Assembly: GCA_903825575.1 (NCBI GenBank)
Contig: CAIKAW010000031.1
Coordinates: 3,469-67,468, forward strand
Reading direction: 5' to 3'
DNA length: 64,000 bases
From: an uncultured bacterium
GTDB lineage: Bacteria > Actinomycetota > Actinomycetes > S36-B12 > CAIKAW01
The position numbers and the translations under genes are program-made. The notes under the pieces were generated by a model. That model worked only from the letters and a program-made list of their open reading frames with translations. It made no database searches and was not told the DNA's origin. Shown here piece by piece: positions 1,901 through 57,455 of the stretch. Numbering within the stretch: the first letter of the stretch is position 1; the number at the start of each line of letters is the position of its first letter.

Positions 1901-3853
1901 GTGCCGGTGGCAGAACTGAGTTATCGACCGGCACCAGGGGCAATACCGCAGGAGCCCGGGGTTTACCGATTCCGGGATGCTTCCGGCCGGATTCTGTACG
2001 TCGGCAAGGCCAAGAATCTGCGTTCGCGACTCACGTCATATTTTCAGGATCCATCAGGACTCCATGTCCGGACCCAAGCGATGCTTCAAGCTTCCGAATC
2101 AGTGGACTGGGTGGTCGTCGGCACCGAAATTGAAGCACTCCAGTTGGAGTACACCTGGATAAAGGAATACGAACCGCGCTTCAACGTCCGGTATCGCGAC
2201 GACAAGAGTTACCCCTACCTTGCCGTGACCATTGCTGAGCCCGTGCCGCGAGCGTTCGTGACCAGAGGAGACAAGCGCAGGGGGGTCCGTTACTTCGGTC
2301 CCTACCCCCAAGTGTGGGCAATTCGTGAGAGCTTGGACTTGCTGCTGCGGGTATTTCCGATTCGCACTTGTTCCGATGCGGTGTTCGGCAGGGCGAAACG
2401 AAGCGGACGTGCCTGCTTATTGGGCGACATCGGCAAATGTTCGGCTCCCTGTGTAGGACGCGTTACGTCGGCTGAGCACCGAACGATGGTTGAGGAATTC
2501 AGTCAGTTCCTCGCCGGTCGCCCAACCAATCAGATTCGTCGGTTGGAACAGGACATGGCCATGGCTGTCGCCGAACTCGACTATGAGCGTGCCGCCCGAC
2601 GTCGTGACGACCTAGTGGCCATTCGAAAGGTTCTGGAACGAACCACGGTGGTACTCAAGGATGACACTTTCGCGGATGTCGTGGCACTATTCGAAGACGA
2701 TCTAGAAGTTGCAGTGCAGGTCTTTCATGTCCGAGCCGGAGCGATACGTGGCCAGCGCGGTTTTGTCGTGGAGAAAGTGGTGGAACTCGACTCGGCTGAT
2801 CTGCTGGAAAGCCTACTAGTCCAAATGTACGCAGACCTAGCTCGGGCGTCGGGTACCTCGAGCGACCGATTGTCGGATCAAATCCCACGCGAAATTCTGG
2901 TCCAAACCTTGCCAGCAAATTCCGAGGTACTGGCGCTTTGGCTTGGCGAACGTGCAGGTCATCGCGTCGATGTACGAGTTCCTGTTCGGGGCGCGAAAGC
3001 GGCACTCATGGCTACGGTGACAGAGAACGCTCGCCAAGAATTAGCCCGGCACAAGATCGCTCGAACGGGGGATCTGACAAAGCGTGGGCAGGCCTTGGCG
3101 CAACTTCAATTGAACTTAGGGTTGGCGCAGGCGCCACTGCGTATTGAGTGCATCGATGTGTCGAATCTTCAGGGGACCGATGTGGTTGCGTCTTTGGTTG
3201 TTTTCGAGGATGGACTACCGCGCAAGTCCGAGTATCGACGATTCATCATCAAAGACGTCGTCGGCCAAGATGATGTGCGAAGTATCGCTGAAGTGGTGAC
3301 CCGCCGATTCCGGCCAGAAGCAGACGACCTTGCCGCGCCTAGCGGGGAATCCGCACGTCGCCCACCTCGTTTTGCCTACCAACCGCAACTTCTGGTGATC
3401 GATGGCGGCCGACCCCAGGTTGCAGCAGGGGCCGCCGCTTTGGCTCGGGTGGGCGCTGAAGCTGTGCCGGTAATCGGATTGGCCAAACGCATGGAAGAAG
3501 TGTGGTTACCCGGGTCGGATGTGCCGGTGATCATGTCTCGTAGCAGCGAGGGCTTGTACCTGCTGCAGCGGATTCGAGATGAGGCTCATCGCTTTGCGAT
3601 CGCCTTCCACCGGCAGCGGCGCAGCAACCGCATGGTCGCAAGTGCGCTCGATGACGTCCCTGGCTTAGGCCCAAAACGTCGAACCGCACTGTTGTCCCAT
3701 TTCGGTTCGGTCGCCGCCATCCGTTCGGCCACCGCAGACGAATTGGCTCACGTGCCAGGTGTCGGCCCTGCATTGGCTCAACAAATCATGCAGGTTTTGG
3801 TCGGTGAGCCGGGTGGTATCAACGTGTCCACCGGTGAGATCCTCGATCCATGA
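1901..3853 (+). CDS. uvrC: Excinuclease ABC subunit C
   Basis: GIY-YIG N-terminus (PGVYRFRDASGRILYVGKAKNLRSRL). UVR-like helix (LDYERAARRRDDL). C-terminal HhH pair (VPGLGPKRRTALL, VPGVGPALAQ). GTG start at 1901. Confidence 0.95.
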   Translation: MPVAELSYRPAPGAIPQEPGVYRFRDASGRILYVGKAKNLRSRLTSYFQDPSGLHVRTQAMLQASESVDWVVVGTEIEALQLEYTWIKEYEPRFNVRYRDDKSYPYLAVTIAEPVPRAFVTRGDKRRGVRYFGPYPQVWAIRESLDLLLRVFPIRTCSDAVFGRAKRSGRACLLGDIGKCSAPCVGRVTSAEHRTMVEEFSQFLAGRPTNQIRRLEQDMAMAVAELDYERAARRRDDLVAIRKVLERTTVVLKDDTFADVVALFEDDLEVAVQVFHVRAGAIRGQRGFVVEKVVELDSADLLESLLVQMYADLARASGTSSDRLSDQIPREILVQTLPANSEVLALWLGERAGHRVDVRVPVRGAKAALMATVTENARQELARHKIARTGDLTKRGQALAQLQLNLGLAQAPLRIECIDVSNLQGTDVVASLVVFEDGLPRKSEYRRFIIKDVVGQDDVRSIAEVVTRRFRPEADDLAAPSGESARRPPRFAYQPQLLVIDGGRPQVAAGAAALARVGAEAVPVIGLAKRMEEVWLPGSDVPVIMSRSSEGLYLLQRIRDEAHRFAIAFHRQRRSNRMVASALDDVPGLGPKRRTALLSHFGSVAAIRSATADELAHVPGVGPALAQQIMQVLVGEPGGINVSTGEILDP

Positions 3854-3875
3854 CGCTGAATTCCGGGATGTAACG

Positions 3876-4763
3876 ATGACTGAAGATGCACTGGCACCTG
3901 CTCCGAAGTCAAAGCTTGAGGTCACCCTCGTCACAGGTATGTCGGGGGCAGGACGCTCAACTGCGGCGCGGGTGCTTGAGGACCTGGGGTGGTTTGTCAT
4001 CGACAATCTGCTCCCACCGCTTCTTGGCGAAATGCTGACCTTGATTGAGTCCGAAGGGGAGGAGCTTCGGGTCGCGGTTGTCGTAGATGTTCGGAGCGGA
4101 TCGTTCTTTAGGTCCTTGCAGGAGGCAATCGGTCGGTTGCGTAGTGCAGATTACGATTTCCGGATCCTGTTCCTTGAGGCTGACGACCAAACTTTGGTGC
4201 GACGCTTCGAATCAAGTCGACGACCACATCCATTGCAGGGTTCCCGACTCCTTGACGGCGTTGAGGCCGAGCGAGCATTGCTTAGCGATCTTCGTGGCAA
4301 CGCTGACCTTGTGATCGACACTTCAACCTTGAATGTCCATGAACTGCGCCGAGCGGTTGAAGCCGCATTTCCCGACGAAGAAGCGGTCCGCCTTCGCGCA
4401 ACGGTGCTGTCGTTCGGTTTCAAATACGGGCTGCCCGTGGATGCGGACGTCGTGGCCGACGTTCGCTTCCTCCCGAATCCGTACTGGGACGCCGAACTTC
4501 GACCGCTAACGGGGTTGAACGCCGCGGTCAATGATTTCGTGATTGACAGCCCGCAAGCCCCGGAATTCCTTGCCCGCTATGCGGCCCTTCTCGACCTCAT
4601 GTCGGATGGGTACCTGCGCGAGGGCAAGCGATACGTCACGGTTGCGATTGGGTGTACCGGCGGAAAACATCGCAGCGTGGCAATGGCCGAGAACCTGGCT
4701 GCGCGTCTAGTTAAGTCCGGGGTTGAGACTTTGGTGGTCCACCGAGACCTTGGGCGCGAGTAG
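3876..4763 (+). CDS. rapZ: RNase adapter / nucleotide-binding protein RapZ (YvcJ family)
   Basis: Walker [10 protein letters not shown] near the N-terminus and the C-terminal [10 protein letters not shown] motif. ATG 3876 chosen because the longer ORF from 3759 overlaps the uvrC 3' end. Confidence 0.9.
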
Positions 4764-44604: not shown

Positions 44605-46257
44605 TCACTTATCCGCCAACAAAGTAAGGCCGTAAGCAACCGCCCACCGATGCCCTAGCTTGACTCCCACGTTGCCACGGCCAATCAAATGGTGAGGTAG
44701 AACGGCTCCAAGTGCGATTAGGAGCTCTTCATCACCGGCCGGTCCACCAACCAGGAGCAATTCGTTTGGATCAGCACCGTTAAGAGCGCGCACGACATTG
44801 ACACCAAGAATCTCGGCCTTCAGACGCAATCGAAGTACTCGCCATTCCGAGGGCGACAAGCGCCGGTGGAATGGTAGGAGCCCTGCAGGTCCGGCTACGG
44901 CCAGGGCCCCAACGAGGTCTGCGGGCGCCGCACTTGTTAAGAAGTCCCTTTGTCCATCTTCACCCACCAAGACATGAGGATTGGCTACCAGACTCGATGG
45001 TCCACGTTTAACCCAGTCTGCAGCCCCGTGAGGGATCCCCAGGACTGTTGCAACTGCCAGTGTCAGTAGCTCCCCGCCTCCCGCGCACGATACGGCTCCT
45101 ATCGTTCCAGCCATCGCATCAACGGTTCCGCCGCCAAGATCTATTACGGTAGTTCCAGATTCGGAGCCGGGGGTGCTCAGGGCGCCGGTCTGCCCTGCTA
45201 ATGATTCCGACCCCAACAAATGAACGGGGCGCGCAGTCAGATCGCCCACTAATTGGATCGGGTCAACGCTGTCTGGGGCGTTGGTAGACAGCGCGGCCAG
45301 GGCCAGACCGACTTCGTTCGGTCGGGCCCACACGCTGGATGCAGCCTCGCGCAGATTGATTCCGAAAAGGTCTGCCACTTCGGCGCTGGATCCTTCGACA
45401 GACCAGGCGCTTGCCCGATGTCGACCATCTCGGATCTGAGCTAACGCATCCAGGATTGGAAGCCGAAGCCGCCCGCCATCCAGATCGATCCAATCATTGG
45501 ACGAAACCGGATGCGTTGGTGAAGCGGTCGCGTTTCGAGCGACCAATATGGCCCGTTGTCCAGCGTTTTGATCGGCAAGTGCACCGGCGATCACTCGATC
45601 CGAAATTGCGAAATCGGTTGCGAGGCGGAAGGGGTCGGCAAGGCGTGAGACTACGTGGCCGATAGCCGCCACCTCGATTCCCACAAGATCGGCGGCGAGG
45701 GCGGCAGCTGCGTCGATCTCGTCGATGATCGGAATATCCCAGGCGCAGCGATTAGCCAAGAGCACGCCTTCATCTCCGGCGGTTGCAATGCCTTGGATAC
45801 TCAGACCAGCACCAGCCCATGCGTCCAAGATGGGCAGAATGTCTCGAAAGCCCATACCGCGCCTGGCAATGGCAATGATTGGGGTCGCTGACGCCGGCAT
45901 TGGTCCGCCCAGATCGATTGGTATGGCCAAGGCAAAACCGGGCCGGCCTGGGGTGGCGCTTCGATTCGACAAGATCTGAAATTGCCCAGTCGGTATTGGG
46001 GGATCAGGGATAAGCCGAACACCAGTCTCAACCGGTACTTGTCCAGTAATAACGACAAGGTCTGCGACTAAACCAGAATCGCGCTCAATTCGAGACAGCA
46101 ACCGAGCTGCATGTTGCCAGGCTCCGGCTGAACCTTTGCGACCTCGAGTTGGGGCCCGATCCCATGCCAATGGAGTCCAGCGCTCGGCTGTTCCTGCTCC
46201 GGCCAACACAATTTCGGTAGTCGAGTTGCCGACGTCGATTCCGGCGACGATGCTCAT
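44605..46257 (-). CDS. pduG: Diol/glycerol dehydratase reactivase, large (alpha) subunit homolog
   Basis: N-terminus MSIVAGIDVGNSTTEIVLA (compare PduG/DdrA MRYIAGIDIGNSSTEVALA). ATPase motifs VIDLGGGTVDA, GGGELLT, LLLVGGPAGDEEL and GRGNVGVKLGHRWAVAYGL. ATGA overlap with the small-subunit stop. Confidence 0.85.
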   Translation of the reverse strand: MSIVAGIDVGNSTTEIVLAGAGTAERWTPLAWDRAPTRGRKGSAGAWQHAARLLSRIERDSGLVADLVVITGQVPVETGVRLIPDPPIPTGQFQILSNRSATPGRPGFALAIPIDLGGPMPASATPIIAIARRGMGFRDILPILDAWAGAGLSIQGIATAGDEGVLLANRCAWDIPIIDEIDAAAALAADLVGIEVAAIGHVVSRLADPFRLATDFAISDRVIAGALADQNAGQRAILVARNATASPTHPVSSNDWIDLDGGRLRLPILDALAQIRDGRHRASAWSVEGSSAEVADLFGINLREAASSVWARPNEVGLALAALSTNAPDSVDPIQLVGDLTARPVHLLGSESLAGQTGALSTPGSESGTTVIDLGGGTVDAMAGTIGAVSCAGGGELLTLAVATVLGIPHGAADWVKRGPSSLVANPHVLVGEDGQRDFLTSAAPADLVGALAVAGPAGLLPFHRRLSPSEWRVLRLRLKAEILGVNVVRALNGADPNELLLVGGPAGDEELLIALGAVLPHHLIGRGNVGVKLGHRWAVAYGLTLLADK

Positions 46258-46634
46258 TCAGGCTTGGCCAGTCCACGACGCTGATAGGTGCGACTGGCTT
46301 CCCTGACTAATTCCGCCACCAACGGCGCGCCTCTGGAATCCAAACTGTCCGCCAATTCAAACAAGTTTGAGGCGGTCGAGCGGTACGGACGTAGCGCTTC
46401 ATAGATACCCATTACCTCTTCATCGGGGATGCTCGTTAGCTCCGCTGCGCGCAGGAGATTCTCCGACAGATTCGGATTGCCATGAGCTGCGGCAACGCTG
46501 GCCTGATGCCGAAGGGTGTTCGGATGGATCCGGACGTCATCGATCGAAACTTCTCCGCGTCGGACAGTATCAAGCGTCACTTCTGATAAGGGGCGCTCGG
46601 AATACCCATATGCGTCAACATTTCGTTCGCTCAT
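46254..46634 (-). CDS. pduE: B12-dependent diol/glycerol dehydratase small (gamma) subunit, lacking an N-terminal extension
   Basis: VRIHPNTLRHQASVAAAHG..LLRAAELTSIPDEEVMGIYEALRPYRST..ELADSL..LVREASRTYQRR aligns with the PduE/DhaB3 core. 126 aa. Confidence 0.88.
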   Translation of the reverse strand: MSERNVDAYGYSERPLSEVTLDTVRRGEVSIDDVRIHPNTLRHQASVAAAHGNPNLSENLLRAAELTSIPDEEVMGIYEALRPYRSTASNLFELADSLDSRGAPLVAELVREASRTYQRRGLAKPE

Positions 46635-48853
46635 ACCAGCTCCAAGGTCTCGGGAACATAAACGTTGCTACAACTACGCTCAATGGCCACTAGAGAGATG
46701 ACTTTGGTGTGGTAACGCGCCTCTATCGCTTCGTCACTGTAGGGATTGCGAGCCGGCTCAGGTGTGCTTCCCTTGGCATGACGGCCCGCATTTGTGCCCA
46801 ATAGTCGATACAACTCGCGAGTCACCGTCGGAGCGACGCTGTATAACTCGAGGTTAGCTAGCGGAGTCAAGTCGCGTCGATGAATGAGCGCAGTGCCTTT
46901 GGCCTGAAGTCCGATTGAGATTCCCGACCCAGACAGCTGTGCTGCAGTCAGTCCCAGGCGGCCCAGATCAATCGTGTCGTTCACCCGCACTATTCGACCT
47001 ATGCACCCTTCCTCCTCGAGGCCGGCAAGGAGTTCTTCAAGTACGTCGACTACAAGCAGTCCCGATAATGTTTGCCATACTTCTCGTCCGACTGCCGGCG
47101 ATACCCCGATAACCACATCACGAGGATCAGTACTCAGAGTGGCCGCACCAGTTGATCTAAGGCGATGACTGCTGTGCTGCTGTTGCTCGGCGCGGAGGTC
47201 TGCGACGGATCGTTCTTGTCGAATACCATCGATTTCCGCCTGGCGCGCTGGTGTTGGCACGTAACCCGTACCTGGTCCGGCGTAGTCATTGGGGTCCGTT
47301 ACCAGCGAGAGCACATTCCATTGCTCGTCAAAGATTGCCGCGGTATGCAGATAGTCGCCATGTACGCGCTGCTGCAACATCGTCAGCATTCGCCCCGCCT
47401 CTACCTCATATCCGCAGTCGGCTAGCGCGGTCACAACATCGAGCATCGTGATGCCAGAATCACGCACGATACGCGCAGCATTTAGGGGCGTCATGAGATC
47501 GGCTGCGGGAATGTCCTTGGAACCGGCCGCATCTATGGCTTGAGCTGCCCACTCGTCGCTGAAGTCACCGAGTCCCAGGTACCGGTAGACATCACGTACC
47601 GCCGAGACCGCCCGCTCCCGTAGCGATTCGAGGGCATTCATGTCTGTTGAGCGAAGACCACCATCGACCCCCCAATCCCGCTGCATGGCGAGGAAGTCGT
47701 CGATATCCTCCGAATTCCACTGACTCGGGCCGAACATGTTGTCGTAACGCTGGATCGAACCGAAGCCACTGCAGATGTAATCCGACCCCGCAATGAAGAT
47801 TGGATGCGTTCGAGAGGTCCGGCGGACGTCCGACTCAGACATCAAGGCGTCGTTTCCAGTACAGGCTTCAAGATTGCGAGCCATGACCATTAAGTTCTCG
47901 GCCATCAAGGAGCGCACTCCGCCGGGCACTGAACTGGCCACTGACGCAGAATCGATGCCTCCGTTCTGGACACCCTGCGCACCAATCGCACGTGCCAGCG
48001 AAACGCACCGCGCTTCAAGGTAGAACATCGAACGCTTCTCAGCCCCGCCCATCAAGGCTTCGGCGCCGCCACCGGAGGTGACCCGCATCTTGATTCCCCG
48101 CGATGCGTACGCCGAAGTCAGGAAGGCCTTGGACCATGGAGAATCGTCGCCGTCTACGAAAATCTGCTCGGTCCCGTAAAGCGAGACTGTTTCCGCGTAG
48201 GACACAAGTCCGCGCAGTCCCATCCACAATTCCAGGGCTTCTTCCACAGAACATTGAACTAGAACTCCGGCGGATCCAACTGCCGCGCCGATACTGACAG
48301 CGATCGCGTTGGAGGGGGCATCTCCGAGAACCGGTACGGTCGTCTCAATCTCGCGAAACCCAAACGCCGCTGCCGTTGCAGCATCTGCACTTAGCAAAAG
48401 CGGGTCATCGCTGCGATTAGTGACGTGGGCCTGATTGCTTGGTGTCCGGCGGGCTCGCATTTTCGTCATAGCGATGACCAATTCGGCCGGACGTAGCAAT
48501 GTGATGATCTCAGCCAACTTGGCCGGGGTCATGCCCGCTACAAGCCTAACAATCTCGCTGCGGGAAACATTTGGATCAATGAACATTCTCGCCGCGACAA
48601 GATTGTCAAGGGCCATTGCCTCAATGGCAACATCTAGATCGATTCCGTGGGCCGCAATAAAGGAGTCAATTGCATCGAACTCGGAAGCTGGTCGCGAGTC
48701 CAGCTCCGTGACTTGCCCCTCAGAAATGACTAGCGAAGGAATCGGGTCGTGGGGTGAGGCAAAGGCCACCAGACCTAAATCGACATCAGGGACTGCAAAG
48801 CCGTCAAGATTAACTCTCTGCTCATCCATGAATCGGATGCGACCGATTGTCAT
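46631..48853 (-). CDS. B12-dependent diol/glycerol dehydratase, large (alpha) and medium (beta) subunits fused in one 740-aa polypeptide
   Basis: Residues 1 to about 545 match PduC/DhaB1 (KMRARRTPSNQAHVTN, REIETTV, YAETVSLYGTE, GAQGVQNG, SESDVRRT, ICSGFG, DNMFGPS, GDYLHTAAI, DPNDYAGPGTGY). Residues about 579-740 match the PduD/DhaB2 core (VVIGVSPAVG, EEEGCIGRIVRV, LSGSGISIGLQAKGTALIHRRDL). A linker of about 33 aa (QERSVADLRAEQQQHSSHRLRSTGAATLSTDPR) joins them with no stop. Confidence 0.9.
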   Translation of the reverse strand: MTIGRIRFMDEQRVNLDGFAVPDVDLGLVAFASPHDPIPSLVISEGQVTELDSRPASEFDAIDSFIAAHGIDLDVAIEAMALDNLVAARMFIDPNVSRSEIVRLVAGMTPAKLAEIITLLRPAELVIAMTKMRARRTPSNQAHVTNRSDDPLLLSADAATAAAFGFREIETTVPVLGDAPSNAIAVSIGAAVGSAGVLVQCSVEEALELWMGLRGLVSYAETVSLYGTEQIFVDGDDSPWSKAFLTSAYASRGIKMRVTSGGGAEALMGGAEKRSMFYLEARCVSLARAIGAQGVQNGGIDSASVASSVPGGVRSLMAENLMVMARNLEACTGNDALMSESDVRRTSRTHPIFIAGSDYICSGFGSIQRYDNMFGPSQWNSEDIDDFLAMQRDWGVDGGLRSTDMNALESLRERAVSAVRDVYRYLGLGDFSDEWAAQAIDAAGSKDIPAADLMTPLNAARIVRDSGITMLDVVTALADCGYEVEAGRMLTMLQQRVHGDYLHTAAIFDEQWNVLSLVTDPNDYAGPGTGYVPTPARQAEIDGIRQERSVADLRAEQQQHSSHRLRSTGAATLSTDPRDVVIGVSPAVGREVWQTLSGLLVVDVLEELLAGLEEEGCIGRIVRVNDTIDLGRLGLTAAQLSGSGISIGLQAKGTALIHRRDLTPLANLELYSVAPTVTRELYRLLGTNAGRHAKGSTPEPARNPYSDEAIEARYHTKVISLVAIERSCSNVYVPETLELV

Positions 48854-49284
48854 GACGCGGATTCCTTCAGATAGACATCTAAACCGGCTTCAGCGGCAGC
48901 AAGATCTTGAGCGGCAGTGCCGCCGCTAACTCCGATGCCGCCGATTACGCGATTACCATCCCATAGCGGCAGACCACCAGCAAAGCAGATGTATCGGCCA
49001 CCAGCGGCCGCCGAAAGTCCAGCCAATTCGGCCCCCGGCGACGCAAGTTCAGTGAGTTCATGGGTCCCGGCGCGATGGGCCGTGGCTGTATAGGCCTTGT
49101 CTACGGCCAAGGTAGGGCCCGCGATTTCGGCGCCATCCATCCTCGAGAAGGCGACTAGATTGCCGCCTGCATCAACCACAGCTGCGGAGACCAACGCCTG
49201 ATTTGCCGCAGCGCTGGAAGTTGCTTCCCGAACCATTCGGCTCGCGAGTTCCAGATCTATTTCCCAGCGATTAACTCGTGGCAT
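48850..49284 (-). CDS. GlcG/HbpS-like (DUF336, PduO C-terminal-domain-like) protein
   Basis: 144 aa: AAVVDAGGNLVAFSRMDGA..TLAVDKAYTA..GGLPLWDGNRVIGGIGVSGGTAAQD. ATGA overlap with the dehydratase start. Confidence 0.8.
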   Translation of the reverse strand: MPRVNRWEIDLELASRMVREATSSAAANQALVSAAVVDAGGNLVAFSRMDGAEIAGPTLAVDKAYTATAHRAGTHELTELASPGAELAGLSAAAGGRYICFAGGLPLWDGNRVIGGIGVSGGTAAQDLAAAEAGLDVYLKESAS

Positions 49285-52309: not shown

Positions 52310-53599
52310 GTGAGTCACGATTACGGATTCTTCTCGTTCGAGTCCAAGGACGAGGTGCTGGCCAAGTCCAAGGAATTCTGGAACCCAGGCAAGACACAGT
52401 TCTGGATTGACGAGGGCGTGCCGCTAGTGATCGACAGGCGCGAGGGCTACTTCATCTATGACATGTCCGGCAAGCGCCTGATCGATACCCACCTCAATGG
52501 CGGCACCTACAATCTCGGGCATCGGAATCCTGAAGTTGTTTCGGCTATCGAGTCCGCGATGACCCATTTTGACATTGGAAACCACCATTTTCCTTCCCTA
52601 GCGCGCACCGCTTTGGCCGAGGCCTTAATTGCTGGTGCACCCCCCGGGCTGACCAAGGTGGTCTACGGCTCAGGCGGTGGTGAAGCTATCGACATTGCGC
52701 TCAAGACAGCCAGACATGCCACCCAGAAGCGCAAAATCGTTTCGATTGTTAAGGCCTACCATGGCCACACTGGACTGGCAGTCGCTACCGGGGACGATCG
52801 TTTTTCTAAGCTATTCCTATCCGAGCAGCCGGATGACTTCCCACATGTGCCGTTCAATGACCTCGCGGCCATGGAAGAGGCCCTTGTGGGCCGCGATGTA
52901 GCAGCGGTGATCATGGAGACGATCCCAGCGACCTACGGCTTCCCTCTTCCGAACCCCGGATATCTAGAGGCGGTCAAGGCCATGTGTGAACGTTATGACG
53001 CGCTGTACATCGCCGACGAAGTCCAGACCGGACTTATGCGTACTGGCGAGTTGTGGGGGATCAGCAAGCACGGAATATCGCCCGACATCATGGTCACCGG
53101 TAAGGGGATTTCCGGAGGCATGTACCCGATCTCGGCCGTGCTCGTGAATGAAAAGGCAGCGGGCTGGCTCACTGAGGACGGTTTTGGGCACATCTCTACC
53201 TTCGGTGGCGCAGAAGTGGGTTGCATCGCCGCGTTGAAGAGCCTTGAGATTTGCAGTCGTCCTGAGACTCGTTCGATGGTGCACTACATCAGCGATTTGA
53301 TCGGTCGCGGAATGCGCTCAATTCAAGATCTCTACCCCGATTGGTTCGTGGGAATCCGCCAGAACGGCGTAATCCTTGGCTTGGAATTCGCCGACCCGCA
53401 GGGTGCCAAGTTCGTGATGCGGCGCCTTTACGAGCATGGGGTTTGGGCGATCTTCTCAACACTTGACCCGCGCGTGTTGCAATTCAAGCCCGGGCTGTTA
53501 CTTACTCCTGAGCTGTGCGAGGAGTTGCTAGATCGCGCCCAAGTCGCCATCGGGCTAGCCAGAGACGATGTCGCGCGCGCTGGAAGGAAGGCCAGCTGA
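52310..53599 (+). CDS. Class-III aminotransferase-fold PLP enzyme (candidate amino-alcohol O-phosphate phospho-lyase)
   Basis: Class-III motifs GGGEAIDIALK, ADEVQTGLMRTGELWG and PLP-lysine context MVTGKGISGG. First gene of the BMC operon. The phospho-lyase role is inferred by analogy to the RMM locus. Confidence 0.8.
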   Translation: MSHDYGFFSFESKDEVLAKSKEFWNPGKTQFWIDEGVPLVIDRREGYFIYDMSGKRLIDTHLNGGTYNLGHRNPEVVSAIESAMTHFDIGNHHFPSLARTALAEALIAGAPPGLTKVVYGSGGGEAIDIALKTARHATQKRKIVSIVKAYHGHTGLAVATGDDRFSKLFLSEQPDDFPHVPFNDLAAMEEALVGRDVAAVIMETIPATYGFPLPNPGYLEAVKAMCERYDALYIADEVQTGLMRTGELWGISKHGISPDIMVTGKGISGGMYPISAVLVNEKAAGWLTEDGFGHISTFGGAEVGCIAALKSLEICSRPETRSMVHYISDLIGRGMRSIQDLYPDWFVGIRQNGVILGLEFADPQGAKFVMRRLYEHGVWAIFSTLDPRVLQFKPGLLLTPELCEELLDRAQVAIGLARDDVARAGRKAS

Positions 53600-55140
53600 T
53601 GCCTGAACTGCTTGTTGAATCGGCCGGTGTTCCTAGGGCCCGGGCCATGGTGGCGCGCGCAGAATGGGCGGCGCGCACTTTTGCCACGTATGACAAACCG
53701 TCGGTAGACCGCATTGTGCGGGCCGCAGCCAAAGCCCTCGCAGATCACGCTGCTGAGTTCGCTAAGGCCGCCGTTGCCGAAACCGGGTTCGGCGTGGCCG
53801 ATCACAAGGCGCTTAAGAACCTGGCCTGTTCAACCGGCTTGGTCGATCATTACCGGGACCACGACTATGTGACTCCGCGAATAGATGTCGACGCCAAGAT
53901 TGTGGAAGTCCCGCGTCCTGCCGGTGTGATCTTCGCGTTAACCCCCTCGACGAATCCGGTCGCCACTACATCGTTCAAGATCCTGCTTGCCCTCATGACC
54001 CGTAGCGCAGTGATCGTGAGTCCGCATCCATTGGCTAAGGACGTTTGCTCTGCTGCCGCCAAGGTGATGGCCGAGGCGGCCTTAGCTGCCGGCGCCCCTG
54101 ACGGTGTCATCCAATGGGTTGCCGAACCTTCGATCCCACTCATCAACGCTTTGATGACAGATGAGCGAGTGGATGTGATCGTTGCCACTGGCGGAAGCGC
54201 AGTAGTTCGGTCCGCATATCGAAGTGGAAATCCGGCAATCGGAGTTGGGCCAGGGAATGTGCCTGTCCTTGTGGATCGAACGGCAGATATCCCAGCCGCA
54301 GCAGCACGCATCATTGAAAGTAAGAGTTTCGACAACTCGATTCTTTGCACGAACGAGAGCGTTGTAATTGTTGAATCAGCGGTTGCGGACAAGTTCGTTT
54401 CGGCCATGGTGCACGAGGGAGGTTTCCTACTCAACCCTGAGGACCGCGATCGAATCCGCGAACTGGTGTTCCCCGACGGGCATTTCGATATCCGATTCGT
54501 TGGCAAGGATGCAACTTGGATCGCGGCAGAGGCCGGGATCAGAGTCCCTGCGAACACGAAGGTCCTTATCGCGCCATTCGACCTAGCCGTACCCGAAGAA
54601 CCGCTGGCCCATGAAAAACTGTGTCCAGTACTTGGTTTGATCAAAGTTCCTACGGCGGCCCGCGGCATCGAGGTTGCGCGAGCGGTGCTGCGGATCACTG
54701 GTGCAGGCCATTCTGCGGCCATCCACTCACGAGATGCTCAAACCGTGCTGGCATTTGGCGCGGGCGTGCCCGTCTACCGAGTTTCGGTAAACGTCGGGAA
54801 CAGCTTGGGGAGCTCGGGCATCCATACGAACCTGGCTCCATCCATGACCATCGGAACCGGCTACGCCGGGCGATCATCCGTAGGCGAGAACCTTCAGCCA
54901 TCACATTTGATTCACTGGACAAGACTGGCCTACAACGCCGATGTGCGCGAAGTTCTCCCAGATTTCACGGGGCTATCACCATGGACTGCCGCAACGGGCA
55001 GCGTGCCGCCTTATCCGCAGGCGTCTAACTTGAGTACCGCAAATGTCGCACCACCGCGCGCCCAGGACGACGCCACTGAACTCCGCGAGGAGATTCGCCG
55101 GCTGATCGTCGAAGAGCTTCATCAGATAATCAAGGGCTGA
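53599..55140 (+). CDS. CoA-acylating aldehyde dehydrogenase (EutE/PduP class) with a C-terminal extension
   Basis: ALTPSTNPVATT, ATGGSAVVRSAY, GVGPGNVPVLVD and catalytic-Cys context FDNSILCTNES. ATG 53599 forms a 1-nt TGATG-type (TGA/ATG) junction with the upstream stop. Confidence 0.88.
   Translation: MPELLVESAGVPRARAMVARAEWAARTFATYDKPSVDRIVRAAAKALADHAAEFAKAAVAETGFGVADHKALKNLACSTGLVDHYRDHDYVTPRIDVDAKIVEVPRPAGVIFALTPSTNPVATTSFKILLALMTRSAVIVSPHPLAKDVCSAAAKVMAEAALAAGAPDGVIQWVAEPSIPLINALMTDERVDVIVATGGSAVVRSAYRSGNPAIGVGPGNVPVLVDRTADIPAAAARIIESKSFDNSILCTNESVVIVESAVADKFVSAMVHEGGFLLNPEDRDRIRELVFPDGHFDIRFVGKDATWIAAEAGIRVPANTKVLIAPFDLAVPEEPLAHEKLCPVLGLIKVPTAARGIEVARAVLRITGAGHSAAIHSRDAQTVLAFGAGVPVYRVSVNVGNSLGSSGIHTNLAPSMTIGTGYAGRSSVGENLQPSHLIHWTRLAYNADVREVLPDFTGLSPWTAATGSVPPYPQASNLSTANVAPPRAQDDATELREEIRRLIVEELHQIIKG
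55072..55137 (+). other. Putative C-terminal encapsulation peptide of the aldehyde dehydrogenase
   Basis: The last 22 aa, ATELREEIRRLIVEELHQIIKG, form an amphipathic helix pattern. They are separated from the catalytic core by a Pro-rich, low-complexity linker (SPWTAATGSVPPYPQASNLSTANVAPPRAQDD). Confidence 0.6.
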
Positions 55141-55143
55141 ATC

Positions 55144-55746
55144 GTGGCTGAACTGCGTTCCTTCATTTTCATCGATCAACTGCAGCCGCAGACGATGTGT
55201 TACCTCGGGACGTGGATCCGAGGGGCATTACCCAGATCGAACATGGCCGCCCAGATTATTGAGGTTGCACCCGGGCTTGATATTGAACCCTTGACCGATG
55301 TGGCACTTAAGCACGCTGAAGTGCAGGCGGGGATCTTGGTCGTGGAACGCCAGTTTGGGTATCTCGAGCTTCATGGGCCCACTGCTCAGGTGCGGGCGGC
55401 CGGAGCAGCTGCACTTGAGGCTTTAGGCGCCAATGAGACCGACGCATTGAAGCCTGAGATTCTAGCTTCGCGCATCATCACGATGATTGATTCGCAGCAT
55501 GCCTTCCTAATCAACCGGAACAAGGTTGGTTCGATGGCACTGCCAGGCGAATCCCTATTCGTTCTGGAAATGCAACCTGCGTCCTACGCCATTCTTGCCA
55601 CGAACGAGGCTGAGAAGGCCGCACGAATCAAGGTTGTCGACTATCGGATGATCGGTGCAACGGGCCGGGTGTACTTGACCGGCAAAGAGGCTGACGTCAG
55701 GCAAGCCGCGGAAGCGGCCGAAGTTGCCCTTCGGAACGCGCGATGA
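55144..55746 (+). CDS. Tandem BMC-domain shell protein (BMC-T class), paralog 1
   Basis: 200 aa made of two repeats with a BMC-domain pattern (..IIEVAPGLDIEPLTDVALKHAEV..LELHG.. and ..LEMQPASYAILATNEAEKAARIKVV..GRVYLTG..). Paralogous to 56802-57455. Confidence 0.8.
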   Translation: MAELRSFIFIDQLQPQTMCYLGTWIRGALPRSNMAAQIIEVAPGLDIEPLTDVALKHAEVQAGILVVERQFGYLELHGPTAQVRAAGAAALEALGANETDALKPEILASRIITMIDSQHAFLINRNKVGSMALPGESLFVLEMQPASYAILATNEAEKAARIKVVDYRMIGATGRVYLTGKEADVRQAAEAAEVALRNAR

Positions 55747-56201
55747 GTGGTGATTGGACGGGCAGTTCAGCCGACTTGCGGGCTTTGGTCCGTGAGGTAC
55801 TTCGTGACGCCGTACCGAAGAATGACGCGCAAGAGGTTCCGGCTACCGCACCTGCCCAAGTAACCGCTCCCGCAGTGGTGGAGCCGATCTCGATCCGTTC
55901 CGATGCGGACCTTGCAGCGTTCGTTCAACGGGTGCTGGATGCCGCGGCGGATCCAGGGACAGCTGCTGCTCTGCGCTCAGGCCGGGTTAAGTTTGTGCTT
56001 GCCGGCGCCGCTAGTCCGATGGAAGTGTCGACTCCGCGGGCTGCTGGATATCGAGTGGAGCGCGGTGCGGTAACCGAACGCCACGTGCGCGAGGCTGCCG
56101 AAGTCGGGACCACGTTGATTCTTGGCAGTCGGGCCGTGTTGACTCCTTTAGCAAAGGATCGTGCGCGTACTGCCGGAATCACGATTGAGAAGGAGAACTG
56201 A
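55743..56201 (+). CDS. BMC-associated protein of unknown function with an N-terminal encapsulation-peptide-like helix (possibly PduM-like)
   Basis: 152 aa. It begins SADLRALVREVLRDAV (amphipathic) followed by a Pro/Ala linker (PKNDAQEVPATAPAQVTAPAVVEP). A second helix, SDADLAAFVQRVLDAAAD, and the C-terminal AVTERHVREAAEVGTTLILGSRAVLTPLAKDRARTAGITIEKEN complete it. ATGA and TGATG overlaps join it to the flanking shell genes. Confidence 0.6.
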   Translation: MSGDWTGSSADLRALVREVLRDAVPKNDAQEVPATAPAQVTAPAVVEPISIRSDADLAAFVQRVLDAAADPGTAAALRSGRVKFVLAGAASPMEVSTPRAAGYRVERGAVTERHVREAAEVGTTLILGSRAVLTPLAKDRARTAGITIEKEN

Positions 56202-56449
56202 TGCTTCGCGCGAGAGTCGTAGGCAATGTATGGGCGTCTAAGCGCCTACCCGAAGTTCCTAACGGCGCATTCCTGGAAGTTGTAATTGAAGAAGGCGGCG
56301 CTCATCTGGTCGCCTTCGACGTCTTAGGCAGCGGGATTGGTGAAAGGGTCTTGGTAACAACTGGCTCCGTCGCCGCAGCTTGGTTCCCGGGCAACCCGCC
56401 GCCGATTGATGCGCTAATTATTGGCTCTATCGACGAAGTAGCGAACTGA
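56201..56449 (+). CDS. BMC vertex pentamer protein (BMC-P; EutN/CcmL family)
   Basis: 82 aa: MLRARVVGNVWASKRLPEVPNGAFLEV...GERVLVTTGSVAA...DALIIGSIDEV. RBS GAAGGAG lies upstream. Confidence 0.9.
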   Translation: MLRARVVGNVWASKRLPEVPNGAFLEVVIEEGGAHLVAFDVLGSGIGERVLVTTGSVAAAWFPGNPPPIDALIIGSIDEVAN

Positions 56450-56479: not shown

Positions 56480-56498
56480 CCGTGACAACAGGTCACGG
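56480..56498 (+). promoter_or_regulatory. Small perfect hairpin in the 68-nt gap preceding the BMC-H gene
   Basis: ccgtgac-aacag-gtcacgg (7-bp stem, 5-nt loop), about 10 nt upstream of the AAGGAGAAG RBS of the BMC-H gene. This is the only sizeable gap inside the shell cluster. Confidence 0.25.
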
Positions 56499-56517
56499 TG
56501 ATCGACAAGGAGAAGAC

Positions 56518-56805
56518 ATGTCGAACAATGCAATTGGATTGATCGAGACCAAGGGCTATGTTGCGGCACTTGCTGCGGCTGACGCGATGGTTAAGGCCGC
56601 CAACGTCACTATCGTTGGTCGCGACGAGGTTGGCGATGGCCTTGTAGCCATCACGATCGTTGGCGATGTTGGCGCAGTCAAGGCTGCCACTGAGGCTGGG
56701 GCCGAGACGGCTGGCTCGGTGGGCGAATTGGTATCCGTGCACGTGATCCCGCGTCCGCACCCTGAGCTTGCCAAGCACTTCAACGTATCCGGCGAAACCT
56801 CGTGA
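56518..56805 (+). CDS. BMC hexamer shell protein (BMC-H; PduA/EutM type)
   Basis: AIGLIETKGYVAALAAADAMVKAANV...GDGLVAITIVGDVGAVKAATEAG...SVHVIPRPH is a canonical single BMC domain. ATG 56518 lies behind AAGGAGAAG. Confidence 0.93.
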   Translation: MSNNAIGLIETKGYVAALAAADAMVKAANVTIVGRDEVGDGLVAITIVGDVGAVKAATEAGAETAGSVGELVSVHVIPRPHPELAKHFNVSGETS

Positions 56806-57455
56806 GCACGGTCCCGCCACCAGCGGGACCGGAGCTGCGCGTTTACCTGTTGGTATCAGATCTGCAGCGACAATTCGCTGCGTATCTGTCTACTCCGACG
56901 CGAGCTCGTGGCTATCCGCCGTTCGAGGGCCAGCATTCCCTCATCGTCGAAGTAGCCCCTGGGCTCGCTATCGAGCGGGTGATCGATTTGGCGCTGAAGT
57001 CCGTTCCGGGTATCGAGCCGGGGATCCTCTTCGTCGAACGGCAGTTCGGGGTGCTCGAATTGCATGGCACCGAACTTTCGGATGTCCTGGCAGCTGGGGA
57101 CGCCATCCTTGCTGGTTTGGCTGCCGAAGCTACGGATCAATTGCGGCCGCGCGTTCTGTACAGCGACGTGATTGAGAACATTACTGACCAGCACGCAGTA
57201 ATTATCAATCGCAATCGTCAAGCATCTATGGTCTTGCCTGGCGACACCTTGTTGGTTTACGAAGTGACACCCGCACTCTTCGCAGCCGTGGCAGCAAATG
57301 CGGCCGAGAAGGTTGCACCAGAGAACACTTTGGTCGACGTGCAGATGATTGGTGCGGCTGGACGGGTCTACATCAGCGGTACCACAGCGCAAGTGGAATT
57401 GGCTCGCGCCGAAATCACTCGCGTGCTCGAGGGGATAGCCGGCAGAGATCACTGA
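56802..57455 (+). CDS. Tandem BMC-domain shell protein (BMC-T class), paralog 2
   Basis: 217 aa with the same two-repeat architecture as 55144-55746 (LRVYLLVSDLQRQ.., IVEVAPGLAIERVIDLALKSV.., VYEVTPALFAAVAANAAEKVA.., GRVYISG). GTGA overlap with BMC-H. Confidence 0.8.
   Translation: MSTVPPPAGPELRVYLLVSDLQRQFAAYLSTPTRARGYPPFEGQHSLIVEVAPGLAIERVIDLALKSVPGIEPGILFVERQFGVLELHGTELSDVLAAGDAILAGLAAEATDQLRPRVLYSDVIENITDQHAVIINRNRQASMVLPGDTLLVYEVTPALFAAVAANAAEKVAPENTLVDVQMIGAAGRVYISGTTAQVELARAEITRVLEGIAGRDH

Follow-up and report, generated by a model that had tools for sequence, protein, structure and literature searches.

A putative core-shell adaptor encoded among the shell genes of an RMM1/AAUM microcompartment locus

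To our knowledge, the means by which the core of a microcompartment is fastened to its shell is known for few systems: CcmN and CsoS2 in carboxysomes, the N-terminus of PduB and PduM in the Pdu compartment, and EutQ in the Eut compartment. [quoted passage not shown] 2025, PMC12487888). Residues 9-41 (H1/H2) are needed for association with the shell, and their deletion parts the shell from the cargo, while H3/H4 bind the encapsulation peptides of the cargo. The partners reported for EutQ are EutM and EutL, and its catalytic activity maps to the cupin domain (PMC12487888). In the Pdu compartment, residues 1-23 of PduM function as a signal sequence for targeting to the core, and deletion of pduM results in a partial separation of core and shell, with some compartments being oversized (PMC12108088). 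PduM was stated in a 2025 paper to have no homologues outside Pdu. In Listeria, a protein of the TIGR02536 family is predicted by an independent structural interactome study to form a trimer that is stacked on the trimer of EutL, a BMC-T shell protein (PMC13181095).

For the RMM/AAUM organelle of mycobacteria and other Actinobacteria, the searchable literature gave no account of cargo recruitment. Two of its enzymes have reportedly been studied. Crystal structures of its shell proteins exist according to the catalogue of Sutter 2021, whose supplementary table lists msmeg_0271 and 0275 as Tdp, 0272 as H, 0273 as P, and 0276 as aldehyde dehydrogenase, with no row for 0274 (PMC8217296). A search of the literature for MSMEG_0274 and its neighbours found no data. 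The protein described here, X152, is the counterpart of MSMEG_0274 by gene order.

The locus and the X152 gene

The window, a stretch of 64,000 nucleotides from an uncultured bacterium, contains a cluster of genes for a class-III aminotransferase, an aldehyde dehydrogenase, one BMC-H, one BMC-P, two BMC-T(dp), an APH-type kinase, an SDR, and a GntR regulator, as assigned by Pfam and NCBIfam. As these loci have been defined (Axen 2014, PMC4207490; Sutter 2021, PMC8217296), the cluster is an RMM1/AAUM locus, and its gene order is the same as in at least 56 reference loci, Mycolicibacterium species included. The features surrounding X152 are:

55078..55137, + strand: C-terminal encapsulation peptide of the aldehyde dehydrogenase, ELREEIRRLIVEELHQIIKG (from the translation)
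55144..55746, + strand: upstream tandem-domain shell protein BMC-T, CcmP-like, double-stacking type (Pfam BMC; NCBIfam CcmP, E = 1e-63)
55743..56201, + strand: X152 coding sequence, 152 aa (open reading frame, homologous clusters, synteny)
56190..56195, + strand: Shine-Dalgarno sequence AAGGAG for BMC-P, within the last codons (E-K-E) of X152 (read from the sequence)
56201..56449, + strand: BMC-P vertex pentamer gene, directly downstream of X152 (EutN_CcmL, E = 2e-17)
56482..56805, + strand: BMC-H hexamer gene (Pfam BMC, E = 9e-26, domain from aa 17)
56802..57455, + strand: second BMC-T, CcmP-like (Pfam BMC; NCBIfam CcmP, E = 2e-56)

The preliminary description of this DNA placed X152 among shell genes, and the Pfam and NCBIfam assignments bear this out, giving BMC-T, BMC-P, BMC-H, and BMC-T as its neighbours. 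The true start of the BMC-H gene is probably internal, close to MSNNAIG. The C-terminal motif of the aldehyde dehydrogenase, LREEIRRLvIEEL, is conserved across RMM loci and follows a variable linker.

X152 is joined to the genes on both of its sides. At its 5' end, the start codon ATG (55743-55745) runs into the stop codon TGA of the upstream tandem-BMC gene (55744-55746) as ATGA; at its 3' end, the stop codon TGA (56199-56201) and the start codon ATG of BMC-P (56201-56203) have one base in common, which makes TGATG. Both overlaps are as first reported. The upstream BMC-T is translationally coupled to X152. The 4-nt overlap with the upstream BMC-T is kept in 62 of 74 loci, and the overlap between the X152 stop and the BMC-P start (1 or 4 nt) in 68 of 80. 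An 85-aa open reading frame runs antisense at 55925-56182.

A sequence search (E ≤ 1e-3) retrieved 1334 protein clusters similar to X152, and members of the family range from 131 to 345 aa in length. The order BMC-T/X152/BMC-P/BMC-H/BMC-T is present in 80 of 80 genome loci, which were found through X152 itself. Among metagenome loci that were baited with BMC-P only, without use of X152, each of the 74 informative ones likewise has X152 as the gene directly before BMC-P. Every one of these 80 and 74 loci carries a homologue, and X152 is a core component of RMM1/AAUM loci.

Architecture of X152

According to the family alignment and to an AlphaFold2 model built with an alignment of 116 sequences, X152 consists of three conserved parts that are joined by variable, disordered linkers. 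The model has a helix at 9-23 and disorder at 24-43, followed by a folded unit (strand 45-49, helices 54-68 and 71-79, strand 82-86), disorder at 90-99, and a second folded unit (strand 103-110, helix 112-121, strand 125-133, helix 135-144, strand 148-150). About one third of the chain is predicted to be disordered, and the pTM of the model is 0.32, versus 0.76 for a model of PduM. The parts are:

55767..55814, + strand: N-terminal amphipathic helix, encapsulation-peptide-like, aa 9-24, DLRALVREVLRDAV (AlphaFold2 helix 9-23)
55815..55871, + strand: disordered linker 1, Pro/Ala-rich, aa 25-43 (pLDDT <50 for 24-43; large indels among homologues)
55872..56006, + strand: middle domain, aa 44-88, predicted beta-alpha-alpha-beta, including the second amphipathic helix, DADLAAFVQRVLDAAAD (AlphaFold2 strands 45-49 and 82-86, helices 54-68 and 71-79)
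56007..56045, + strand: disordered linker 2, aa 89-101 (pLDDT <50 for 90-99; variable in the alignment)
56046..56198, + strand: C-terminal beta-alpha-beta-alpha-beta module, aa 102-152, putative shell-docking domain (AlphaFold2; profile comparisons)

Two encapsulation-peptide-like helices had been claimed for X152, SADLRALVREVLRDAV (aa 9-24, nt 55767-55814) and SDADLAAFVQRVLDAAAD (aa 53-70, nt 55899-55952), and both peptides lie exactly at these positions. Typical encapsulation peptides are terminal amphipathic helices of about 15-20 aa that are accompanied by a variable linker, and helix 1 has this form. Its family consensus is LRaLVREVLRxxLP, and its hydrophobic moment of 0.80 is the highest in the protein. 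In alignments with the family profile, the N-terminal encapsulation peptides of PduD, PduP, PduE, EutC, and EutE fall into the same register. Re-alignment with hhalign also brings helix 1 onto the N-terminal residues of PduM. The Pro/Ala linker that had been noted behind the helix is disordered in the AlphaFold2 model. With the classical encapsulation peptides (PduD, PduP, EutC, EutE), helix 1 shares the L-x-x-L-V-x-x-V-L spacing and the poorly conserved linker that follows; it differs from them in being placed on a non-enzymatic protein, as is the case in PduM and PduB. In silico, helix 1 is thus encapsulation-peptide-like, with a putative role in targeting. Since an HMM of the N-terminal helix did not retrieve the C-terminal peptide of the aldehyde dehydrogenase, the pairing of these two peptides is proposed by analogy.

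Helix 2 does not have the form of an encapsulation peptide, as it is not terminal but packed into a folded unit within the chain. The amphipathic segment at aa 53-70 is present as described, but it is not a free helix, as it lies inside the middle domain, the best-predicted folded unit of X152 (pLDDT 81-88). This domain is present in 74 of 74 genome-locus proteins, with L57, F60, G80, and F84 conserved, and is absent from a natural variant of 110 aa (L159) that consists of helix, linker, and C-terminal module only. Because helix 2 belongs to a folded domain that is missing in a natural variant, the notion of two encapsulation peptides is half right. The middle-domain helix is weakly similar to helix 1 (P = 1e-3). 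No known relative of the middle domain emerged from the comparisons run: its hhalign score against the middle of PduM is 7.5, versus 8.4 ± 1.6 for shuffles, and its HMM has no match in EutQ, although a two-helix domain of this kind might conceivably be an analogue of H3/H4. An internal duplication, which would make the middle domain a decayed copy of the C-terminal module, was considered and rejected (hhalign P = 0.31). The middle domain, the best-predicted part of X152, could carry its real function.

X152 has no enzyme signature, as there is no Pfam, PDB-sequence or significant fold match. Searches of Pfam with X152, the family consensus, and the 116 members found no real family; matches to AraC_N, PAH_ZNF598, IF-2, E3_binding, and GARP, each in at most six members and at E ≥ 8e-4, were taken as noise. 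PDB sequence searches with the single X152 sequence and with a three-family profile of the C-terminal module found nothing below E = 0.77, and Foldseek searches of the PDB with the X152 and PduM models found nothing at E ≤ 0.001; the best local likenesses, to IF2/eIF5B domain III and to LpxH, come from beta-alpha-beta pieces of a generic kind. The identity "LpxI C-terminal domain", which appears as the label of one UniRef homologue and as an NCBIfam LpxI match in one of the 116 members (E = 0.0036), is isolated and was likewise rejected.

The C-terminal module and its relatives

The C-terminus, which had been recognized as a domain of about 50 aa, is folded in the AlphaFold2 model from residue 103 on. 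It is characterized by the motif R-x-E-x-GAVTE...LVLG..AVLTPLArDRAR..G[IV].IEKE, in which R104, G108, E112, T134, and P135 are invariant and R142 is invariant or nearly so. When the family HMM is run against 36 Eut/Pdu proteins of E. coli, the EutQ N-terminus, the PduM C-terminus, and the EutT N-terminus rank first, the matches to single sequences being weak in absolute terms (8-11 bits). In profile-profile comparisons by hhalign, X152 110-148 aligns with EutQ 5-45 (Prob 88%, P = 3e-6) with a score of 29.0, versus 9.2 ± 1.8 for column shuffles, and none of 60 shuffles reach 29.0. Similarly, X152 121-150 aligns with PduM 132-161 (P = 2.5e-4) with a score of 28.9, versus 9.1 ± 1.6 for shuffles (0/60). 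These scores, obtained with shallow EutQ and PduM alignments of enterobacterial sequences only, are about 11 SD above the shuffled controls, a figure that overstates specific homology as column shuffling also removes secondary-structure periodicity. The family consensus further matches positions 5-46 of the EutQ model NF012001 (E = 0.042).

The best database match of X152 is TIGR02536 ("eut_hyp"), a family from ethanolamine-utilisation loci, in which the similarity (18.9 bits) is restricted to model positions 162-206 of 207. These positions are matched by 89 of the 116 family members (E ≤ 0.05; best 3.5e-4), and the family consensus matches the model with E = 4.6e-4. E. coli EutQ 1-51 matches the same positions of TIGR02536. 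A three-family profile of the module yielded 1319 matches in a representative library (E ≤ 1e-3). The best 150 of these are mostly the seed families together with frameshift or fusion artefacts (P0317, P0441, and P0442 are such artefacts), and P0421 alone was informative. This metagenomic tandem-module protein matches TIGR02536 (2.4e-10), EutQ (1.1e-7), and PduM (6.2e-6), as well as the X152-only module HMM (56 bits), and its gene adjoins a PduT-like shell gene; it appears to bridge the X152 module, TIGR02536, EutQ, and PduM. Because the profile-profile scores are so far above those of the shuffles, and because P0421 matches all three curated models, the C-terminal module of X152 is, by profile comparison, homologous to EutQ 5-45 and to the C-termini of PduM and TIGR02536. 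As a whole protein, X152 is below the membership cut-offs of the PduM, EutQ, and TIGR02536 families.

Like EutQ, X152 has, besides the module (X152 110-148, EutQ 5-45, the H1/H2 module), a linker that is flexible and a helical element directed at the cargo, and a bridging of shell and cargo is proposed for both. The module is N-terminal in EutQ, whereas it is C-terminal in X152; cargo peptides are bound via H3/H4 of EutQ, whereas X152 itself bears an encapsulation-peptide-like helix; and the C-terminal cupin/acetate-kinase domain of EutQ (PF06249) has no equivalent in X152 by Pfam. With TIGR02536, X152 shares the position of the module at the extreme C-terminus of a small, function-unassigned protein from a microcompartment locus. 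As compared via the family model, the two differ in that the module alone matches, at 18.9 bits versus a curated cut-off of 152.6.

The likeness to PduM that had been noted at the outset holds for the two ends of the protein and for the position of the gene, but not for the middle region. Both proteins are non-enzymatic, are about 150-165 aa long, and start with an amphipathic signal or encapsulation helix. At the same relative position, both end in a module of predicted beta-alpha-beta-alpha-beta structure with the motif ..LVL.R..v.T.LAR[DE].A...I.[IL]..[EQ][EN]-COOH. The pduM gene lies directly upstream of the BMC-P gene pduN in E. coli E24377A, as does X152 of its BMC-P gene in all the loci (80/80 and 74/74). 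There is, however, no collinear similarity over the whole proteins, as the significant segment is limited to 30 C-terminal residues, X152 121-150. Furthermore, X152 has two long disordered linkers where the PduM model is compact, it belongs to another locus type in another phylum, and it is preceded by a BMC-T gene rather than by PduL. The X152 protein of the window does not match the PduM models PF15953, TIGR04493, and NF011957 at E ≤ 1; among the 116 family members, three match NF011957 (best 6e-4), one TIGR04493 (1e-3), and two PF15953 (0.014), all far below the cut-offs.

A motif of the form LTPxAxDxA..GI had also been likened to the N-terminus of EutT. The resemblance is seen, as the module can be aligned with ..G..i.L....rLTPsARe.. 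in residues 6-36 of E. coli EutT, and the EutT N-terminus itself weakly matches the EutQ model. The similarity is nevertheless marginal (3.3 bits, E ~0.08 in a set of 17 proteins), X152 has no adenosyltransferase domain, and the stronger and more informative match is EutQ 5-45. The EutT-type N-terminal extension is presumably Pfam PF12557 (Co_AT_N), for which X152 has no match at E ≤ 1-10.

A proposed role in joining core and shell

Since X152 combines an encapsulation-peptide-like helix and a PduM-like layout with a module that matches the shell-binding region of EutQ, the cargo-shell scaffold proposed at the outset is the best-supported reading of the protein. We consider it probable that X152 is a non-enzymatic structural adaptor that ties the core to the shell in the RMM1/AAUM microcompartment. 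It would then do in RMM compartments what PduM and the N-terminus of EutQ do in theirs, as a linker of shell and cargo. Translational coupling from BMC-T through X152 to BMC-P would lead to the production of X152 in a fixed proportion to the shell proteins. The C-terminal module of about 45 residues would dock on the luminal face of the shell, where its partner would most likely be a trimeric BMC-T and/or the BMC-H hexamer. The N-terminal helix, at the end of its long, flexible Pro/Ala linker, would insert into the cargo core and bundle there with further encapsulation peptides, chiefly the one at the C-terminus of the aldehyde dehydrogenase, such that X152 would join core and shell during assembly. 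The middle domain may be an accessory unit, possibly for oligomerisation or for an extra cargo contact, that at least one lineage lacks. The polarity of this arrangement, with one end assigned to the shell and the other to the core, is carried over from the homologues.

A different wiring, which we regard as unlikely, would make the module a self-targeting "encapsulation domain", as at the N-termini of EutQ and EutT, and leave the real job to the middle domain, which might oligomerise the cargo, bind the aminotransferase or nucleate the core; or else helix 1 would bind the shell and the module the cargo. In classical models, the encapsulation peptide is said to bind the shell. The module does occur on the EutQ cupin and the EutT adenosyltransferase, both of them enzymes in need of targeting, and the middle domain has the highest pLDDT, invariant residues of its own, and a place in all 74 genome-locus proteins. 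However, the natural variant that dispenses with the middle domain retains helix and module, the N-terminal peptide of PduM goes to the core and not to the shell (PMC12108088), and H1/H2 of EutQ goes to the shell (PMC12487888).

It is less likely still that X152 is a vertex or size factor and not a cargo tether; it would then act mainly on the BMC-P pentamer, by chaperoning it or by controlling how vertices are inserted and how large the compartments become. Such a role would be consistent with the position of X152, which is always directly upstream of BMC-P and translationally coupled to it, with the similar placement of pduM relative to pduN, and with the oversized compartments among those lacking pduM (PMC12108088). 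Yet X152 is equally coupled to the upstream BMC-T, and eutQ, which bears the best-matching module, is not adjacent to eutN. The partners of the related proteins also point away from the vertex, as those reported for EutQ are EutM and EutL (PMC12487888) and the TIGR02536 protein is predicted to sit on the EutL trimer (PMC13181095).

There is little to recommend a third possibility, in which X152 is a small ligand- or cofactor-handling or regulatory protein, and the module binds a nucleotide, CoA or a cobalamin-related ligand to aid cofactor recycling. RMM loci are otherwise devoid of obvious recycling enzymes, and the question of how RMM compartments recycle cofactors was raised by Axen 2014 (PMC4207490). 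EutT, a cobalamin adenosyltransferase, and EutQ, an acetate kinase, both bear the module, and the polar residues R104, E112, T134, and R142 are invariant or nearly so. Against this, H1/H2 of EutQ has a demonstrated structural role while catalysis maps to the cupin (PMC12487888), X152 matches no nucleotide-binding family or fold, and the LpxI label and single member match are isolated. Finally, although long spurious open reading frames are common on other frames of the window (the 85-aa antisense frame being an example), the reading of X152 as a chance open reading frame in G+C-rich DNA between two shell genes is already refuted by conservation: the 1334 homologous clusters have three conserved blocks and in-frame variable linkers, the position is constant across 154 independent loci, the start and stop coupling is kept across loci, and the AlphaFold2 structure of the conserved blocks is confident.

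The adaptor reading of X152 may extend to other organelles. We tentatively suggest, with clearly less assurance than for X152 itself, that the module of about 45 residues is a general shell-docking domain of catabolic microcompartments, which would be present in X152, in the C-termini of PduM and TIGR02536, in the N-terminus of EutQ and probably that of EutT, and in tandem-module proteins such as P0421. This domain would attach to trimeric BMC-T tiles on their luminal side, perhaps in the form of a trimer. PduM, eut_hyp, and X152 might then be divergent forms of one ancestral "M-type" adaptor, composed of an encapsulation helix, a linker, and a docking module, and encoded beside the vertex gene. 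If true, RMM, PDU, EUT1, and Gram-positive EUT2 organelles would have one common principle of core-shell coupling, and it would be explained how Gram-positive Eut compartments cope with an EutQ that is without the first helices. Sequence comparison connects X152 with PduM and with that part of EutQ whose binding to the shell was mapped by experiment, and the gene in the position of MSMEG_0274 gains a concrete, testable role. Should the module be a portable shell-docking tag, it would be useful in engineering the loading of cargo, and would help to predict linkers in the many microcompartment types that are without an assigned function.

The X152 gene and its locus

X152, the 152-aa ORF studied here, lies in a locus of the RMM1/AAUM type (Axen 2014, Sutter 2021), where the surrounding genes encode a class-III aminotransferase, an aldehyde dehydrogenase (AldDH), an APH-family kinase, an SDR and a GntR regulator. 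By gene order, X152 corresponds to MSMEG_0274, the sole gene of the smegmatis cluster without an entry in the family table of the Sutter 2021 catalogue.

Features of the locus and of the adjoining cluster
55144-55746, CcmP-like tandem BMC-T (shell trimer), upstream of X152
55743-56201, +, X152 ORF, 152 aa
56190-56195, AAGGAG ribosome-binding site (Shine-Dalgarno) of BMC-P, within the last X152 codons
56201-56449, EutN/CcmL pentamer (BMC-P, vertex)
56482-56805, BMC-H (shell hexamer)
56802-57455, second CcmP-like BMC-T
44605-46257, -, reactivase
46254-46634, -, small diol dehydratase subunit
46631-48853, -, fused large and medium diol dehydratase subunit, 740 aa
48850-49284, -, HbpS-like/PduO-C-type protein

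The preliminary description had X152 overlapping both neighbours, and the bases bear this out: its ATG (55743-55745) overlaps the TGA (55744-55746) that ends the gene before it, and the last base of its TGA (56199-56201) is the first of the downstream ATG. The two peptides quoted there lie where it had placed them, and Pfam/NCBIfam assignments agree with its identification of the neighbouring shell genes. The BMC-P Shine-Dalgarno overlaps the codons of a conserved C-terminal E-K-E (56190-56201), so that the near-invariant ..IEKE[RN] ending of X152 may be under a double constraint, as protein and as mRNA. The ATG at 53596 (MPELLVE...), which overlaps the stop of the aminotransferase gene (53596-53599), is the probable AldDH start, and the coupled-translation pattern would then span aminotransferase, AldDH, BMC-T, X152 and BMC-P. 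The mechanical BMC-H ORF has a GTG start 12 codons ahead of MSNNAIG and enters its BMC domain at aa 17; an internal ATG near 56518 is the more probable start.

A B12-dependent diol dehydratase cluster adjoins the locus divergently (44605-49284, -). Such an arrangement is RMM2 (Axen 2014), found in only 4 genomes (Sutter 2021). Fusion leaves the medium subunit without a free N-terminus that could carry a PduD-type encapsulation peptide (EP).

X152 is a real, conserved gene. Within a 5.8-billion-protein collection it is matched by 1334 clusters (E<=1e-3), mostly from Actinobacteria, which are all named "hypothetical" and among which no Pfam domain was found. Its position is fixed: the order aminotransferase, AldDH, BMC-T, X152, BMC-P, BMC-H, BMC-T, kinase, SDR, GntR is identical, strand included, in 80/80 best genome loci, as far as each contig reaches. 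Circularity was avoided by baiting metagenomes with BMC-P alone and counting the 74 loci in which 200 nt or more of upstream sequence is available; 73 of these have a tblastn-detectable X152 homologue directly upstream of BMC-P, and the exception, L159, has a shorter, 110-aa version. The overlap with the upstream BMC-T is 4 nt in 62/74 loci and that with BMC-P is 1 or 4 nt in 68/80, indicating that translational coupling of X152 to the shell genes is itself conserved.

Anatomy of X152

Alignments and an AlphaFold2 model (116 sequences, mean pLDDT 70, pTM 0.32) agree on five segments, in a family that ranges from 131 to 345 aa.

Segments of X152 (E, strand; H, helix)
1, helix aa 9-23, consensus LRaLVREVLRxxLP
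2, Pro/Ala linker, predicted disordered, length highly variable
3, middle unit, E45-49/H54-68/H71-79/E82-86, highest confidence (pLDDT 81-88), invariant L57, F60, G80, F84
4, second linker, disordered
5, C-terminal unit (the module), E103-110/H112-121/E125-133/H135-144/E148-150, invariant R104, G108, E112, T134, P135

Segment 1 has the largest hydrophobic moment in X152. When the family HMM was searched against 36 E. coli Eut/Pdu proteins from annotated genomes, its positions 1-30 fell in register with residues 3-27 of PduE, PduD, PduP, EutC and EutE, each of which is known to carry an encapsulation or signal helix at its N-terminus. The single scores are low, as 15-residue helices would lead one to expect, and the alignment supports, short of proof, an EP-like helix. 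The obvious candidate partner for co-aggregation is the C-terminal peptide of the RMM AldDH, LREEIRRLvIEEL, which every inspected locus conserves behind a linker of variable length; the X152 helix HMM did not select this peptide.

A second encapsulation-like helix, proposed in the preliminary description, corresponds to H54-68. It does resemble the first (P=1e-3 across 14 columns when the profiles are compared), but it is internal and packed within the middle unit, and the whole unit is missing from L159. The L159 protein (metagenome Ga0315900_10006724, 3648-3980) is a natural minimal version in which a linker joins an extended N-terminal helix (ALREIIREVVREVIREVVVEEM) to the module; it scores 10.8 bits for the helix, 43.7 bits for the module and -0.6 bits for the middle.

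In the homologues P0360, P0423, P0311 and P0039 the linkers exceed 100 residues and are rich in Pro/Ala/Gly, with internal repeats in some (P0360 has APGNALAAP twice). As these linkers expand, all three conserved blocks are preserved, which suggests that tether length is little constrained, or tuned by lineage.

Relatives of the C-terminal module

Searches of X152 against Pfam, PDB (by sequence) and PDB (by Foldseek) gave no significant match. In NCBIfam, positions 162-206 of TIGR02536 (the last 45 of 207), an uncharacterised "ethanolamine utilisation protein" family, match X152 at E=9e-4, a weak but very consistent match (89/116 family members). The module HMM ranked the EutQ N-terminus (6-46), the PduM C-terminus (133-158) and the EutT N-terminus (16-36) as the top three of the 36 E. 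coli proteins. Profile-profile comparison aligned X152 110-148 with EutQ 5-45 (Prob 88%, P=3e-6; EutQ N-terminal alignment) and X152 121-150 with PduM 132-161 (P=2.5e-4; PduM alignment). The raw scores were 29.0 for EutQ and 28.9 for PduM; the column-shuffled controls, 60 per comparison, gave 9.2±1.8 and 9.1±1.6, and not one approached the real score. The PduM AlphaFold2 model (pLDDT 88.7) has the same beta-alpha-beta-alpha-beta arrangement at its C-terminus.

The E. coli EutQ N-terminus also matches the module positions of TIGR02536 (E=1.4e-3), and a three-family module profile finds 1319 proteins at E<=1e-3 among 1.84 billion representatives. One of these, P0421, a 161-aa protein from metagenome 3300008001 (L083, 535-1020, on a contig of only 1 kb), lies just downstream of a PduT-like tandem-BMC shell gene. 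It combines an N-terminal helix of EP type with two module copies, which flank a second amphipathic helix; it matches TIGR02536 (2.4e-10), EutQ (1.1e-7) and PduM/TIGR04493 (6.2e-6) at once, and scores 56 bits against an HMM built from X152 sequences alone. This chain of matches makes common ancestry of the module across X152, EutQ, PduM and TIGR02536 credible.

E. coli EutQ residues 6-51 weakly match positions 2-47 of the EutA (reactivase) model NF007991 (E=0.007), which hints at the same N-terminal module on some EutA proteins. P0317, P0441 and P0442, which carry the module, are artefacts in which read-through or frameshifts have joined adjacent genes (X152 C-terminus with BMC-P, EutP with EutQ, EutQ N-terminus with EutD), so that domain-architecture counts for the module taken from raw protein collections would mislead.

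A putative link between cargo and shell

In EutQ, H1/H2 (residues 9-41) mediate association with the shell (EutM, EutL), the encapsulation peptides of EutC and EutE are bound by H3/H4, and without either part shell and cargo separate; in Gram-positive bacteria, EutQ is missing its first three helices (Yang et al., PMC12487888). PduM 1-23 is a core-directed signal sequence, and loss of PduM or of this signal causes partial separation of core and shell (mSphere 2025, PMC12108088). A Listeria TIGR02536 protein is predicted to be a trimer stacked on the EutL trimer (2026 structural-interactome atlas, PMC13181095).

X152 would work like PduM and the EutQ N-terminus, and pduM likewise lies directly upstream of pduN, as X152 does of BMC-P, yet X152 falls outside both families by their own criteria. 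It failed every curated cut-off of the PduM, EutQ and TIGR02536 families, it lacks the cupin domain of EutQ, and its middle unit shows no similarity to the PduM body (7.5 against 8.4±1.6 for shuffles). The best description of X152 is a family of its own, unnamed, that has one module and an overall design in common with PduM and the EutQ N-terminus.

On balance, we favour X152 as a non-enzymatic adaptor linking cargo core and shell in the RMM1/AAUM compartment. The module would dock on the shell, its most likely partner being BMC-H or a trimer of BMC-T; the BMC-T whose gene precedes X152 and is translationally coupled to it makes an attractive candidate. Held on a long flexible linker, the N-terminal helix would join the cargo core by helix-helix association with the AldDH peptide, and the middle unit would be accessory, perhaps for oligomerisation. 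The binding roles were demonstrated by others for the homologues only; that X152 acts likewise, with this polarity and partner, we infer. The same parts wired differently are an unlikely arrangement, and an action on BMC-P as a factor for vertices or size, as adjacency to that gene might suggest, is less likely still. A ligand or cofactor role seems very improbable, and a spurious ORF is hardly conceivable for a gene so conserved.

The RMM1/AAUM locus type was already known and the gene is present in databases as "hypothetical"; no paper discussing it was found in the literature searched. The computational assignment of X152 as a putative shell-cargo linker, together with one module joining PduM, EutQ-N, TIGR02536 and X152, appears new relative to the accessible literature. 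For specialists this is useful rather than astonishing, and cargo recruitment in RMM compartments becomes directly testable.
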